A stretch of 64,000 bases of DNA from Escherichia coli (GCF_003334785.1 NZ_QOWV01000006.1), one strand, 5' to 3'; numbered from the stretch's first letter, positions 7,138-14,511 are shown. A program made the numbers and translations. Notes: generated by a model not told the origin, from the sequence alone.

Positions 7138-8445
7138 TTATTTGCTACTGTCCGGGCCGCGTTCACCGGTTGCTACCGGATTTTTTGGATCGCTGCTCCA
7201 TTCGTACCAGCCGCCGTCATACACGGAAACATTCTTCCAACCCATGGCGCGTGCGTACATAAAGGTTTCGGACGCGCGCCAGCCGGTGCCGCAGTAGAAT
7301 GAAACTTGCTGCTCTGGTTTGATATTCCACGCTTTCCACATAGCGGTAATATCATCGGCGCTGCGCATGGTGCCATCCGGGTTATGAAAATCTTCCATAT
7401 GCGTCGAGTCGCTACCAGCGTGTCCCCAACGTGCGCCGGCTATTTCACCTTTTGGTTTAATATAGCTGTAACCGCTGGTCGTACCGATAAATTCTGGCCA
7501 CGAACGAATGCTCACCAGCGATGCATCCTGGCGATGCAGCAGTCCACGGGCCTGTTCCATATCGAGCATCAACTGCGGTTGTGCCGGGATCTTCACGCCG
7601 AAATCCGGTTCCGCTTTCACTTTCGGTGGCGTTCCGCGCTCAACAGGCAGTCCCGCGTCGGACCAGGTTTGCCAGCCGCCATCCAGCAGGCGCACATCTT
7701 TCACGCCAGCATAAAGCATAATCTGCGCCACACGCGCTGCAGCGTATACGTCACGCCCATACAGAATGACCGTGGTGTCATGGCGAATGCCGTGTTTTGC
7801 CAGCATCGCTTTTAGTTGTTCATCAGAAACTTTGTTCCACAGCGGTTCACTTTCCACTTCGTTGGTATCGATGTAGTCAGCGCCGGGAATATGGCTGATA
7901 AGGTAAAGCTTAGGAGCGCCCCAGGCCGCTTCAATGACTTTCCAGTCACCGGCAGGTTTCGCCGTAACCTCTTTACCTTGTTGCAGGTCGTGCAGCCATT
8001 GCGGATAAACCAGCTGCTCAAAATGCGGCAGTTTTTGCAGACGGGAAGGTTCGCTTAGCGCGTCACTCAGGATGGAGATATGCGTTAAACCTGCTTTTTG
8101 CAGTCGCGTTTTGACGGCGTCGACATCTTTGTCATTACCGTACAGCGCCACCGGAGCATCGGTTTTCAGGTTATGTTGCTTGATCCACGCGTTGAGCTGT
8201 TCGGTGCTCATTTTGTCAAGCCAGCTGGCAGAGAGGTTTAAGGCGGCAGGTTCATGACCAGAAGGGCCATTTAAGGTTTGTGGCCAGCCGTTATAAAACG
8301 CGCTGGGGCGAGTATCTATCGCTTTGCCATTTTGTTGTTGAAGCTGGTCAAGTGTAAGAGGCTTCGCCAGTTCAGCGGCCCACGAAGAAGCGCAAGCCAG
8401 CCCTAAAGCCATTGCCAGCGCGGTCATTTGAGAAACACGTTTCAT
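7138..8445 (-). CDS. ynjE: Periplasmic thiosulfate sulfurtransferase (triple rhodanese domain)
   Basis: 435-aa product from internal ATG of ORF 7138..8460; signal peptide; rhodanese active-site Cys loop (FYCGTGWR). Confidence 0.9.
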   Translation of the reverse strand: MKRVSQMTALAMALGLACASSWAAELAKPLTLDQLQQQNGKAIDTRPSAFYNGWPQTLNGPSGHEPAALNLSASWLDKMSTEQLNAWIKQHNLKTDAPVALYGNDKDVDAVKTRLQKAGLTHISILSDALSEPSRLQKLPHFEQLVYPQWLHDLQQGKEVTAKPAGDWKVIEAAWGAPKLYLISHIPGADYIDTNEVESEPLWNKVSDEQLKAMLAKHGIRHDTTVILYGRDVYAAARVAQIMLYAGVKDVRLLDGGWQTWSDAGLPVERGTPPKVKAEPDFGVKIPAQPQLMLDMEQARGLLHRQDASLVSIRSWPEFIGTTSGYSYIKPKGEIAGARWGHAGSDSTHMEDFHNPDGTMRSADDITAMWKAWNIKPEQQVSFYCGTGWRASETFMYARAMGWKNVSVYDGGWYEWSSDPKNPVATGERGPDSSK

Positions 8446-8511
8446 CGAAAATCCCGACATTGTAGTTTTGAGTGCGCCATTCTGAACTGACGCATTGAGA
8501 AAAACTTTGCG

Positions 8512-9165
8512 TTATCGCAGTTTGTTGTAATTTTCTGACCACTGCGCCATATCCAGAACAGAACTATCAGCAGGAACATCCTGGAGATCGTGCGTTACCT
8601 GAACGACGGGGATCGCCAGGGCGCGAACTTCGCTGAACACCCACTGGCGAAAATTATCGCGCAGAGCCACATCAAGACGGCTGAATGGCTCATCCAGGAG
8701 TAACGCTTTTGGTTGGGCGAGAAGGGCGCGTAGTAGAGCAACGCGCGCTCGCTGACCGCCAGACAAAGTGGCAGGATCCTGATGGAAAGCTCCCTCAAGG
8801 CCTGAACGCTCAAGTGCATCATTCACGGCATTACGTCGGGCATTCCCTTTAAGTGTCGCCGGTAGCGCCAGCAGTAAATTTTGCCCGACACTGAACTGGT
8901 CAAATAACAGTGCATCCTGAAAAAGAATGCCAATCTGACGCTGTGCGGTGGGTAGGATGTCAATCCGTTGCTCATTGAGCCATAGCTCACCTGTACAAGA
9001 AAACTGTTCGGCCAGTGCACCAATCATCCATGAAAACAGAGTGGATTTTCCACAGCCAGACGGCCCCATTAACGTGACAATGTCACCTTTATCCACCGTA
9101 AAGTTAACGTTTGTCAGCAAGCGGCTTTCTGGTAAACGTAGCGAAACATTTTTCACGCAGAGCAT
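8512..9165 (-). CDS. ynjD: ABC transporter ATP-binding protein
   Basis: 217-aa product; Walker A GPSGCGKST, ABC signature LSGGQ, Walker B LLLDEP; start ATG overlaps ynjC stop. Confidence 0.88.
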   Translation of the reverse strand: MLCVKNVSLRLPESRLLTNVNFTVDKGDIVTLMGPSGCGKSTLFSWMIGALAEQFSCTGELWLNEQRIDILPTAQRQIGILFQDALLFDQFSVGQNLLLALPATLKGNARRNAVNDALERSGLEGAFHQDPATLSGGQRARVALLRALLAQPKALLLDEPFSRLDVALRDNFRQWVFSEVRALAIPVVQVTHDLQDVPADSSVLDMAQWSENYNKLR

Positions 9166-13118: not shown

Positions 13119-13796
13119 TTATTCGGCGATTTTAAAGGTAACCGTTGCCAGCGTGTTATCCGCCGGGAGAACTGAGGCATTGCCTTTGAATTTAACTTCA
13201 CCACGTTTTTCAACCGCACCATAAGTGTATGTTGCATTGCTGACGATGCCGACCGGGCAGCTATCCAGACACACCAGGCAACCCGTTTTCTTCTCTTCTG
13301 CTGCCGTTAAATTACCGCCAAAGCGCATGTCCAGTTTCTTGCCATTACTGTCAACAATCACTTCATCGAAGGAATACGCTTTTGCCGCCCCTTGCCAGTT
13401 GACCGAAATATCCAGTTTGCTGCCTGTGACATGAGTCGTTTCTTTATTATCCATCGTCATGTTTTCGCCCGGCGTACCACCTGCCTCTTTCAGGGCTTCA
13501 TAAAATGCTTTCGGGGTCGCATAACCCATAAACAGCGATTTATGTCCGTTGGAGCCATCTTTAAACACAATACCGTGACGAGTGTCGTCGGTGAGGAAAC
13601 GACCATTAATTTGCACCAGCATGGTTACCGTATGGTTATTGGCATCGACACGCAGCGGTTGGCTGTTCGAAAGTCCGTCGTATTCCACTTTTGCCGCCGC
13701 ATTCTCTTGTTGATCGCAGCCGCTAAGCCCAGCAACAGCCAGTAAACAGAGTGCAGCCAGTCCTTTTTTCCATGACACTGAATAATGTTGCAACAT
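13119..13796 (-). CDS. ydjY: Putative lipoprotein, function unknown
   Basis: 225-aa product from internal ATG (MLQHYSVSWKKGLAALCLLAVAGLSGC lipobox) within ORF 13119..13958. Confidence 0.8.
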   Translation of the reverse strand: MLQHYSVSWKKGLAALCLLAVAGLSGCDQQENAAAKVEYDGLSNSQPLRVDANNHTVTMLVQINGRFLTDDTRHGIVFKDGSNGHKSLFMGYATPKAFYEALKEAGGTPGENMTMDNKETTHVTGSKLDISVNWQGAAKAYSFDEVIVDSNGKKLDMRFGGNLTAAEEKKTGCLVCLDSCPVGIVSNATYTYGAVEKRGEVKFKGNASVLPADNTLATVTFKIAE

Positions 13797-13800
13797 CGTT

Positions 13801-14511
13801 CTATCCTTCATTTTTTGGGTGAGTAAGTGGGCTGCGGCGCGAAGCAGACAGATCCACATGTTTGTGTCGGGCGTAGAGTTTTGCGAGCTGGACGAGAATA
13901 AACAGCGCCAGGCCCGCCAGACAGAGTTGTAAAATAAAGCGCAGCGTAATGCCTTCATTGGCGAGATCGCTTGCCATCACGGTATAAATAACAATACCGG
14001 GTAGGGTCGTGAGTGCCGAAATAAGGGTATAAGGCCAGAAGGCGATTGTGGTTAATCCGTAAGCGTAATTTTGAATATTGTAAGGAAACAACGGGATTAA
14101 GCGGGTCAGAATAAGAAAATCAATACCGTTACGCGCAATGCCTTTTTCAATGGCCTGGAAGGTATTGCTATGGCCAACGTATTTCAGCAGTAAATCACGT
14201 CCCAGCCAGCGCGCCAGCAGGAATGAGCACGAGGAGGCCAGCGTGGCGGCAATTAATGAGAGTAGTGTCCCTAAGAGCGGGCCAAAAACTATTCCTCCCG
14301 CGATCACCAGTATGCTTCCTGGTAACAGCAAGAGGGTGGCAATGATGAATAACAGAATATAGAGGCTATAGCCGAAAAATCCGCTCTGGCGGATGAGTGT
14401 CTGTAAGTGGGGTAAATCGGTGAGCAGATCGAATAAACCGAAAGCGTGGATAGCGTAAATGACCAGCGCAAAAATAAGACAGGCAAAAAGAAATTTACGC
14501 TCAGCGTTCAT
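13801..14511 (-). CDS. ydjX: DedA / TVP38-TMEM64 family inner membrane protein
   Basis: 236-aa product from internal ATG (MNAERKF) of ORF 13801..14559; multi-TM. Confidence 0.85.
   Translation of the reverse strand: MNAERKFLFACLIFALVIYAIHAFGLFDLLTDLPHLQTLIRQSGFFGYSLYILLFIIATLLLLPGSILVIAGGIVFGPLLGTLLSLIAATLASSCSFLLARWLGRDLLLKYVGHSNTFQAIEKGIARNGIDFLILTRLIPLFPYNIQNYAYGLTTIAFWPYTLISALTTLPGIVIYTVMASDLANEGITLRFILQLCLAGLALFILVQLAKLYARHKHVDLSASRRSPLTHPKNEG

Follow-up and report, generated by a model that had tools for sequence, protein, structure and literature searches.

Eight closely packed genes, ydjX-ydjY-ydjZ-ynjA-ynjB-ynjC-ynjD-ynjE, occupy positions 7138-14511 on the minus strand of a 64,000-nt stretch of Escherichia coli DNA (GCF_003334785.1, NZ_QOWV01000006.1; hereafter, the window). 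Apparently, this locus is the E. coli version of a sparsely distributed, anaerobe-associated envelope module, activated by the regulator FNR from two promoters. Its evolutionarily constant core, as judged from gene neighborhoods, is formed by the lipoprotein YdjY and membrane proteins with the VTT domain, and not by the ATP-binding cassette (ABC) importer encoded in the same locus. Because the linkage recurs across phyla, in different gene orders and as gene fusions, the comparison of genomes shows that the products of ydjXYZ, ynjBCD and ynjE, and probably those of ynjA and the convergent ynjF, should work together; the view of an initial annotation of this DNA, that the genes form a functional unit of unknown role, is thereby upheld. 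As for the role itself, we tentatively favor a sulfur-transfer system of the periplasm that relies on cysteines and acts on a so far unspecified acceptor, a reading that we consider plausible rather than probable. The genes are listed below, with coordinates taken from the RefSeq annotation of an identical strain (window position = locus position + 2999) and from our own translations; the entry for ynjF follows RefSeq.

ydjX, 13801-14511, minus strand: VTT/TMEM41-type (DedA superfamily) membrane protein, 236 amino acids (aa)
ydjY, 13119-13796, minus strand: extracytoplasmic lipoprotein with lipobox LSGC27 and the invariant cysteine triad C173-x2-C176-x3-C180
ydjZ, 12397-13104, minus strand: VTT/TMEM41-type membrane protein, 235 aa, with conserved membrane cysteines C113 and C152
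ynjA, 11849-12397, minus strand: CMD/AhpD-like protein with C74-x-C76-x2-C79
ynjB, 10673-11839, minus strand: periplasmic substrate-binding protein (SBP) of an ABC importer
ynjC, 9165-10700, minus strand: fused double permease of an ABC importer, 511 aa
ynjD, 8512-9165, minus strand: ABC ATPase without a C-terminal regulatory domain, 217 aa
ynjE, 7138-8445, minus strand: periplasmic triple-rhodanese, EanB-like sulfurtransferase with active loop C385-GTGW-R390 and Y326
ynjF, 6509-7129, plus strand: membrane protein of the CDP-alcohol (cytidine diphosphate-alcohol) phosphatidyltransferase family, convergent with ynjE at a distance of 8 nt

The evidence for a conserved module comes from a scan of one genome per species, which gave 80 YdjY loci; proteins encoded within 6 kb of YdjY were clustered, and the partners were counted in genus-level groups, 43 in total. 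VTT proteins are encoded beside YdjY in 77 of the 80 loci, in several phyla and almost always on the same strand. YdjX-type partners (30-37% identity) adjoin YdjY in 21 groups, and YdjZ orthologues, 45-60% identical to the E. coli protein, do so in Firmicutes and Campylobacterota. HdrD-like iron-sulfur (Fe-S)/CCG proteins were found in 19 of the 43 groups, being fused to a VTT domain in Desulfobacterota; the other partners are YnjB-like importers (9/43), ArsS radical S-adenosylmethionine (SAM) proteins and TIGR04282/TIGR04283 transferases (8/43 each), YnjF-like CDP-alcohol phosphatidyltransferases and MprF-type flippase-like proteins (6/43 each), YnjE-like proteins (5/43) and C_GCAxxG_C_C proteins (4/43). 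The assignments to ArsS (TIGR04167, 336 bits at a cutoff of 300), TIGR04282 and TIGR04283 lie above the NCBIfam cutoffs. In the Facklamia cluster, CcdA/DsbD-like and ResA-like proteins are encoded as well. Fusions of YdjY, revealed by a fold search of the AlphaFold database and by an exhaustive profile search, include at least three clusters in which a rhodanese is joined to YdjY (P0271, P0274, P0347), with lipoprotein signals and with both cysteine sites retained; YdjY is further fused to a VTT domain (P0312) and to an OlsE-like fatty-acid hydroxylase (P0359). In the literature we found neither the cross-phylum YdjY-VTT module, nor the fusions, the links to EanB and ArsS or the inclusion of ynjF, parts of which may have been noted by the NCBIfam and Pfam curators.

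YdjY carries a lipobox in a Sec-type lipoprotein signal that lacks a twin-arginine motif. Its homologues, 45-60% identical, occur in Firmicutes, Campylobacterota, Desulfobacterota and Spirochaetia, and the family is very small, a profile search having found 394 representatives at E<=1e-3 among 1.84 billion proteins. In an alignment of 29 YdjY sequences, C173, C176 and C180 are invariant, along with the motifs TRH, FGGN, DS, SN and YT.G and residues E196, R198 and E200. The predicted fold matched no solved fold, ferredoxins included. The database label of YdjY as a "4Fe-4S ferredoxin" is unsupported: the three cysteines are arranged as CxxCxxxC and not as the four-cysteine CxxCxxCxxxCP motif, the best Fer4 matches in Pfam reach only E=0.089-0.25, and the export signal is of the Sec type.

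The VTT domain (PF09335) was recognized in both YdjX (E=6.8e-26) and YdjZ (E=1.6e-24). In a published phylogeny the two proteins group with the eukaryotic TMEM41/Tvp38 and not with classical DedA, and of the eight DedA-family paralogues of E. coli only DedA itself gave strong resistance linked to undecaprenyl phosphate. An assignment as UptA-type undecaprenyl-phosphate transporters was rejected, the scores of YdjX (27.5 bits) and YdjZ (36.4 bits) being far from the NCBIfam equivalog cutoff of 250. Among 56 YdjZ sequences, C113 is conserved in 100% and C152 in 93%, whereas YdjX-type proteins have no conserved cysteine. That neither a substrate nor the role of the DedA pair is established, as stated initially, agrees with our literature search, which turned up neither.

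Several side observations concern the surroundings of YdjY and YdjZ in other bacteria. A small membrane protein (about 130 aa, four helices) that carries a conserved WLEMR motif comes after YdjY in a number of loci (L031 10659-11054, L054 1985-2362, L051 4717-5097 and others) and also forms the N-terminal extension of YdjZ proteins of 390-417 aa (fused in L015 10694-11878); it had no match in Pfam or NCBIfam, and neither a copy in E. coli nor homology to the N-terminus of YnjA was detected at a significant level. In a Tissierellia genome, a selenocysteine insertion element, SECIS_4 (40.6 bits; gathering score, 38), was detected about 6 kb upstream of YdjY (L016 3699-3736, plus strand), and in Facklamia and Bacillus benzoevorans the PrdB-like open reading frames (ORFs) of the clusters end at 155 aa, as expected at a UGA-selenocysteine codon. 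A histidine kinase and a response regulator are encoded directly beside YdjY-YdjZ in Tissierellia, Clostridium magnum and Sulfurospirillum (L016, L026, L031), which suggests signal-dependent induction there in place of FNR control.

YnjE is identical to the protein of PDB entries 3IPO and 2WLR and consists of three rhodanese domains preceded by a signal peptide; its catalytic cysteine sits in a CX4R loop (C385-G-T-G-W-R390), as is characteristic of rhodaneses. Its next-best solved relatives are sulfurtransferase entries of 460 aa (6KTV, 6KU1 and 6H98), matched with about 300 bits, the identity being about 40% across residues 33-427 (395 residues). These we take to be EanB, the oxygen-independent ergothioneine synthase of Chlorobium limicola, the residue spacing fitting its published numbering. 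Y326, C385 and R390 of YnjE align with Tyr353, Cys412 and Arg417 of EanB, and Glu318 is kept too, while a threonine stands at the position of EanB Tyr375. The catalytic roles of Tyr353, Cys412 and Arg417 in EanB have been described (PMC10903977), and in 2022 the structure of YnjE was cited with EanB-like enzymes whose function is unassigned and that "may attach sulfur to heterocycles" (PMC9516567). Purified YnjE had no apparent thiosulfate:glutathione (GSH) sulfurtransferase activity, and which substrate it uses physiologically is not clear; its expression barely raised cellular sulfane sulfur from thiosulfate, and most of the thiosulfate-dependent activity of E. coli is supplied by PspE, with almost none due to YnjE (PMC10215317). 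Since no thiosulfate:GSH activity was apparent, the RefSeq name "thiosulfate sulfurtransferase" overstates what is known of the enzyme. The YnjE-like neighbors of YdjY in Catonella, Peptostreptococcaceae and Campylobacter are lipoproteins that keep the SGYxY and CG(T/S)GWR motifs.

By its parts, YnjBCD is a complete type I ABC importer, with an exported SBP, a permease of the BPD_transp_1 type and an ATPase with the expected motifs. YnjB has a signal peptide and an SBP_bac_8 domain; in YnjC, BPD_transp_1 was found at residues 346-502 (E=3e-7) and weakly at 136-254, and YnjD contains Walker A (GPSGCGKS), signature (LSGGQ) and Walker B (LLLDEP) motifs. No sequence relative of YnjB was found in the PDB at 1e-3; its profile matches only PotD and the binders of agropine and 2-aminoethylphosphonate (AEP), at E of about 1e-4. 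Structure prediction, recommended as a check in the initial annotation, gave an AlphaFold2 model with a predicted local distance difference test (pLDDT) score of 85, but the model was uninformative on the ligand: the best Foldseek matches, binders of phosphonate, polyamines, metal-citrate, iron or sugar phosphates, share 13-17% identity with it. A broad search for YnjB homologues returned only close enterobacterial copies; in the YdjY clusters of seven Firmicute groups, YnjB homologues of 32-37% identity are encoded, and YnjBCD-like importers are present there. YnjC shows weak NCBIfam similarity to the PhnU2, ModB and CysT permeases, all far below the cutoffs, and the best matches of YnjD (PhnT2, the sulfate ATPase and ThiQ) are likewise below them. 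Identification of YnjBCD as a thiamine, sulfate/thiosulfate, phosphonate or polyamine importer was rejected, all NCBIfam scores being far below the cutoffs, and the label "putative thiamine transport" rests only on distant similarity to cluster-D importers.

The PDB relatives of YnjA (E of 3e-9 to 2e-5) are the CMD-family proteins 2IJC, 2O4D and 2GMY, AhpD and the debrominase Bmp8. Its CxxC motif is C76-E-F-C79 (CAFC in the Kluyvera homologue), and its similarity to the YciW-related NCBIfam family (101 bits) is below the cutoff. YnjA was found beside YdjY clusters only in Enterobacteria, in two of the 43 groups (Escherichia and Citrobacter). Database sequences that read YnjA and YnjB as one protein of 574 aa with CMD and SBP domains (P0122) were also noted. 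As the 9-nt spacer (11840-11848) is in frame, such a fusion could arise by a single stop-codon change; since YnjB requires its signal peptide, a mutation or an error is more likely than a genuine fusion.

The same chromosomal place in Kluyvera holds xthA, ydjX, ydjZ, ynjB, ynjC, ynjD and ynjE. The ynjA homologue of this genus (54% identity, motif CDCAFC) is encoded on the opposite strand, ahead of ynjF, which it overlaps and to which it is translationally coupled. YnjF is most similar in NCBIfam, below the cutoff, to archaetidylinositol-phosphate and phosphatidylinositol-phosphate (PIP) synthases, and its homologues (23-30% identity) are encoded inside the YdjY/YnjBCD clusters of five Firmicute groups. 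Due to the coupling to ynjA in Kluyvera and to the YnjF-like genes within the Firmicute clusters, the convergent ynjF is regarded as the probable ninth member of the set. Its divergent neighbor in the window is nudG (6015-6422, minus strand), a gene for a CTP (cytidine triphosphate) pyrophosphohydrolase; both enzymes handle cytidine nucleotides, and in Kluyvera the ynjA-ynjF pair has the same NUDIX neighbor (L089 13987-14403). A terminator-like hairpin, CCGGTTGCTACCGG, followed by a T-run (7166-7179, plus strand), occurs shortly after the ynjF stop codon, within the 3' end of ynjE.

All eight minus-strand ORFs were translated, each with a single terminal stop. Gaps of 4, 14 and 9 nt separate ydjX/ydjY, ydjY/ydjZ and ynjA/ynjB, respectively; ydjZ/ynjA and ynjC/ynjD overlap by 1 nt (TGATG and TAATG), ynjB/ynjC overlap by 28 nt, and 66 nt lie between ynjD and ynjE. 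The initial annotation had given the eight genes and their spacings exactly, with only the ydjY/ydjZ gap left unlisted, and its list of parts (two DedA/VTT proteins, a lipoprotein, an AhpD-like protein, a complete ABC importer and a triple rhodanese) agrees with the domain and motif assignments reported here. With an in-frame ATG at 11842, one codon earlier, as the start of ynjB the ynjA/ynjB gap would be 6 nt, and with a TTG at 10724 as the start of ynjC the ynjB/ynjC overlap would be 52 nt. Shine-Dalgarno-like motifs precede ydjX, ydjY, ydjZ, ynjA, ynjB and ynjD, and are weak before ynjC and ynjE. Such tight packing is real and not due to chance, but it is ordinary for operons and not unusual. 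The window belongs to the E. coli chromosome; positions 7000-14600 are 100% identical to several strains, and at least 80% of this region was found in 5313 of 5426 complete E. coli genomes, in line with its description as a conserved locus, already annotated in RefSeq. In one E. coli strain (NZ_CP110117.1, 2233460-2241837) the 7601-nt region aligns in two pieces over 8378 nt, so the locus carries a 777-nt insertion, of the size expected for the insertion sequence IS1 with its target duplication.

According to Myers et al. (2013), two units of the locus are directly activated by FNR, ydjXYZ-ynjABCD, with a site at -60.5, and ynjE, which has a promoter of its own and a site at -41.5; the activation of both was deduced from chromatin immunoprecipitation sequencing (ChIP-seq) and RNA-seq, with an FNR ChIP peak at the ydjX site (PMC3688515). 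In a published data set, ynjE and ydjY group with the anaerobic respiratory genes hyb, hyc, dms and frd, and overproduction of BaeR mildly induces ynjABCD. The following sites were found in the window:

FNR box TTGAGAAAAATCAA, 14621-14634, minus strand: upstream of ydjX, with one mismatch to TTGAT-N4-ATCAA
Promoter-like TTCAGA-16 nt-TACAAT, 8459-8486, minus strand: in the ynjD-ynjE gap, the sole sigma-70-like match in 6400-15000
Palindrome CTGCGATAACGCAA, 8507-8520, minus strand: overlapping the ynjD stop codon, upstream of ynjE

The FNR box of ydjX is kept in Citrobacter (TTGAGTAAAATCAA) and Kluyvera (CTGAGCAATATCAA). The promoter-like site fits the published separate, FNR-dependent promoter of ynjE; no FNR box within two mismatches was found in the ynjD-ynjE gap, only weak half-site candidates. 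The gap has no terminator-like site on the coding strand, so read-through from ynjD into ynjE is also possible. The palindrome reads TGCGTTAACGCA in Citrobacter and Kluyvera and is conserved while its flanks diverge, its center being about 61 nt upstream of where transcription should start, judging by the TACAAT box; its outline, TTG...CAA, is like that of CRP/FNR-family sites, yet it is a poor match to FNR, and could be the site of a second regulator. The locus is thus a set of two promoters under one regulator, switched on without oxygen. The single operon proposed initially is thus only partly upheld: the genes form two units with separate promoters (PMC3688515), yet their expression is correlated.

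An EanB-like periplasmic enzyme, the rhodanese-YdjY fusions, the cysteine triad of YdjY, the cysteines of YdjZ and the thiol and Fe-S reductases among the partners together argue for chemistry of sulfane sulfur or thiols on the outer side of the membrane, and hence for the sulfur-transfer system favored here. In such a system, YnjE would take sulfane sulfur, from polysulfide or persulfide rather than thiosulfate, onto Cys385 and would work with YdjY at the outer face of the inner membrane, the sulfur being put on the acceptor or passed along. YdjZ, with its two conserved membrane cysteines, and YdjX may link this periplasmic chemistry to the cytoplasmic side, their cargo being either the acceptor, possibly lipid-linked, or sulfur or reducing equivalents. 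YnjBCD would bring the acceptor or the sulfurized product into the cell, and YnjA, through its CxxC motif, and YnjF would act on the imported compound in the cytoplasm or in the membrane. The gene layout, the FNR control, the family memberships, the conserved residues, the linkage across phyla and the domain fusions are established by this analysis or by published work; the direction of sulfur flow, the contacts between YnjE, YdjY and YdjZ and the cargo of the importer are inferred. A bolder proposal, which we hold to be unlikely, is that YdjY and YdjZ, with YdjX, constitute an undescribed envelope machine, in which a three-cysteine lipoprotein and TMEM41-type proteins would move sulfur, reducing power or a lipid-linked acceptor across the membrane, serving EanB-like periplasmic sulfurases and, elsewhere, radical-SAM sugar pathways of the ArsS type.

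A number of facts weigh against the sulfur-transfer reading. Within 6-10 kb of YdjY, no rhodanese is encoded in most of its loci (Gemella, Finegoldia, Peptostreptococcus); the links to YnjF-like, MprF-flippase-like and glycosyltransferase proteins point to lipid chemistry; and what DedA/TMEM41 proteins are known to do is to transport or scramble lipids rather than to transfer sulfur or electrons. Mutants of E. coli in ynjE grow normally (PMC10215317). No histidine methyltransferase of the EanA type is annotated within 4 kb on either side of the locus, and, taken with the threonine at the Tyr375 position, this makes hercynine an improbable substrate of YnjE. As regards the importer, comparison of YnjB by sequence, profile and fold with solved binding proteins was too distant to call a ligand, and neither the region of the window nor 15 related loci yielded a relevant riboswitch or other RNA clue to it. 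Finally, the Kluyvera locus has no ydjY; as the other genes are kept there, YdjY is not indispensable to the enterobacterial system.

The main rival, possible if rather doubtful, is a pathway for a special lipid, in which YnjBCD would import a polar head-group precursor, YnjF would join it to CDP-diacylglycerol or transfer a CDP-activated group to a lipid, the new lipid would reach the periplasmic leaflet through flipping or scrambling by YdjX and YdjZ, the part of YdjY and YnjE would be limited to trimming or modifying it, and the cysteines would form no relay. Members of the TMEM41/Tvp38 branch do scramble lipids, DedA, the one paralogue of E. coli whose activity is clear, transports undecaprenyl phosphate, and published authors propose distinct lipids for the other paralogues; the pathway would also accommodate the YnjF-like genes in the YdjY/YnjBCD clusters of five Firmicute groups, the position of ynjF flanking the E. 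coli and Kluyvera loci, the MprF-type proteins in six groups, the interleaving of glycosyltransferase family 2 (GT2)-type TIGR04283, CofC-like TIGR04282, a choline-kinase-like kinase and a nucleoside hydrolase with YdjY/YdjZ/YdjX, the fusion of YdjY to an OlsE-like hydroxylase and the retention of the remaining genes in Kluyvera without YdjY. Yet it leaves unexplained the cysteine triad, the YdjZ cysteines, the rhodanese-YdjY fusions and the HdrD-like and CcdA/ResA partners; near many YdjY-YdjZ loci there is no gene for lipid synthesis, YnjF is only 23-30% identical to the Firmicute proteins, and ynjF, located on the other strand, is not known as FNR-regulated. Handling of a thiophilic metalloid (As, Se or Te, or an organo- or thio-arsenical) seems to us quite improbable. 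The three cysteines of YdjY and the two of YdjZ would then form a binding or transport path, and E. coli would keep a reduced, salvage-type version of the ArsS (arsenosugar-type) pathway. Sites of three cysteines typically bind As(III), as in ArsR, ArsD and ArsM; YdjY and VTT genes are interleaved on one strand with ArsS, TIGR04282 and TIGR04283 in Campylobacter, Sulfurospirillum, Thermincola, Facklamia and Desulfobacterota (with YdjY, YdjZ and YdjX all involved in Campylobacter concisus, Facklamia, Thermincola and Sulfurospirillum), and several partner families have selenoprotein forms, judging by NCBIfam names. On the other hand, the window contains no homologue of ArsS, TIGR04282/3, the kinase or the nucleoside hydrolase, the canonical arsenic genes were rejected as YdjY partners, with acr3/arsC homologues in none of the 80 loci, and no ArsR-type regulator was seen; the "arsenosugar" names of the transferase families rest on co-occurrence, the substrate of ArsS homologues in anaerobes is putative, and the E. 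coli genes respond to oxygen through FNR, not to metalloid. In one Finegoldia contig (L004 1-1713) an arsA-acr3-arsC group lies 8 kb upstream of YdjY and is not seen in the other Finegoldia loci; in view of the absence of acr3/arsC homologues from the 80 loci, it is taken as a coincidence.

Equally improbable in our estimation is the initial proposal in its original form, namely one operon mainly serving an ABC system that would take up a sulfur compound of inorganic or simple nature (thiosulfate or persulfide), with YnjE as a periplasmic thiosulfate sulfurtransferase and the DedA pair as accessory. The rhodanese is indeed encoded beside a complete importer, YnjC and YnjD are weakly similar to CysT and CysA of the sulfate/thiosulfate system, and the evidence for sulfur chemistry cited above applies here too; the lack of apparent thiosulfate:GSH activity of YnjE and the barely raised sulfane sulfur upon its expression (PMC10215317) speak against it. 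The CysT/CysA/Sbp-type scores are far below the cutoffs and do not exceed those of the systems for phosphonate, molybdate, thiamine or polyamines; among solved proteins YnjB has no close relative, and it does not belong to the sulfate/thiosulfate-binding type; and control is exerted by FNR, no control by sulfur starvation having been found in the literature for this locus. Moreover, the importer occurs in only 9 of the 43 groups, as opposed to the constant core of YdjY and VTT proteins. The sulfur chemistry of the initial proposal is supported in general terms (rhodanese-YdjY fusions, invariant cysteines, thiol-redox partners), while the import of thiosulfate or persulfide by the ABC system is disfavored: YnjE is EanB-like, YnjB is unlike the characterized binders and the core lies elsewhere. 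That the genes share no function at all, being packed and co-expressed while YnjE works elsewhere, e.g., in the published proposal of sulfur transfer to the molybdenum cofactor, and the other products act independently, is still less credible and, in our opinion, very improbable. Such independence would agree with the literature label of YnjE as a "molybdopterin synthase sulfurtransferase", with the own promoter of ynjE, with the different position of ynjA in E. coli and Kluyvera and with the absence of YdjY from the latter. Against it, YdjY, VTT, YnjE-like, YnjBCD-like and YnjF-like genes are linked recurrently, in varied orders, in several phyla and as fusions, for which chance or mere co-expression is insufficient; in addition, YnjE acts outside the cytoplasm, as its signal peptide and the lipoprotein nature of its Firmicute relatives indicate, whereas the cofactor is synthesized in the cytoplasm.

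The locus, its operon structure and its FNR control are already known; it forms part of the core genome of E. coli, its annotation dates back decades, and all nine products are still without a physiological role. The sulfur-transfer reading keeps the spirit of the earlier sulfur idea and places YnjE, YdjY and YdjZ, with polysulfide or persulfide, at its center instead of the importer and thiosulfate. The linkage described here (YdjY-VTT, rhodanese fusions, thiol-redox partners, YnjF and ArsS) narrows the search to anaerobiosis, sulfane-sulfur donors and a few cysteines, and two database labels are corrected, the "4Fe-4S ferredoxin" of YdjY and the "thiamine" system of YnjBCD. EanB-like enzymes make carbon-sulfur bonds without oxygen, and a periplasmic member would represent new envelope chemistry. 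Among bacterial proteins, YdjX and YdjZ are closest to the eukaryotic TMEM41B/Tvp38, and a defined substrate would inform a family involved in autophagy, lipoprotein secretion and viral replication. Should the envelope-machine proposal be true, the first case amenable to genetics would be this E. coli locus, which would also provide the first specific substrate for the bacterial relatives of TMEM41B. Expectations are not overturned by these results; rather, long-standing y-genes, including those of TMEM41-type proteins, become a directly testable problem.

Compared with known systems, YnjBCD resembles ThiBPQ, PhnSTUV, FbpABC, AfuABC and PotABCD in its composition of one SBP, a double-length permease and a short ATPase, these importers supplying the nearest folds and profile matches; it differs in scores far below the family cutoffs and in folds only 13-17% identical. 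The ArsS cassette is similar in that, in at least eight genus-level groups of three phyla, YdjY and VTT genes are interleaved on one strand with TIGR04167, TIGR04282 and TIGR04283, whereas none of these three families is encoded in the E. coli window and the canonical arsenic-resistance genes do not co-occur. With the UptA/DedA transporter and the TMEM41B/VMP1 scramblases, YdjX and YdjZ have the VTT domain in common, but the two conserved membrane cysteines of YdjZ orthologues and their obligate lipoprotein neighbor are undescribed for the other members of the family. An extracytoplasmic cysteine protein combined with a membrane protein bearing conserved cysteines and a cytoplasmic thiol or Fe-S reductase is the arrangement of DsbD/CcdA with ResA/CcmG and of HdrD/DsrK; YdjZ has no sequence homology to DsbD/CcdA, its relay role would be putative, and E. 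coli has YnjA of the CMD family in place of the HdrD-like protein. PspE of E. coli and Sud of Wolinella, a periplasmic polysulfide carrier, are, like YnjE, periplasmic proteins in which a catalytic cysteine carries sulfane sulfur; both are single-domain proteins, while YnjE has three domains, an EanB-type active site and genetic linkage to YdjY and VTT proteins. With EanB, YnjE shares the three-domain rhodanese architecture, the CGTGWR loop, the catalytic Tyr, Cys and Arg and a tie to anaerobic life; EanB is cytoplasmic, whereas YnjE is exported to the periplasm, where it may form carbon-sulfur bonds.

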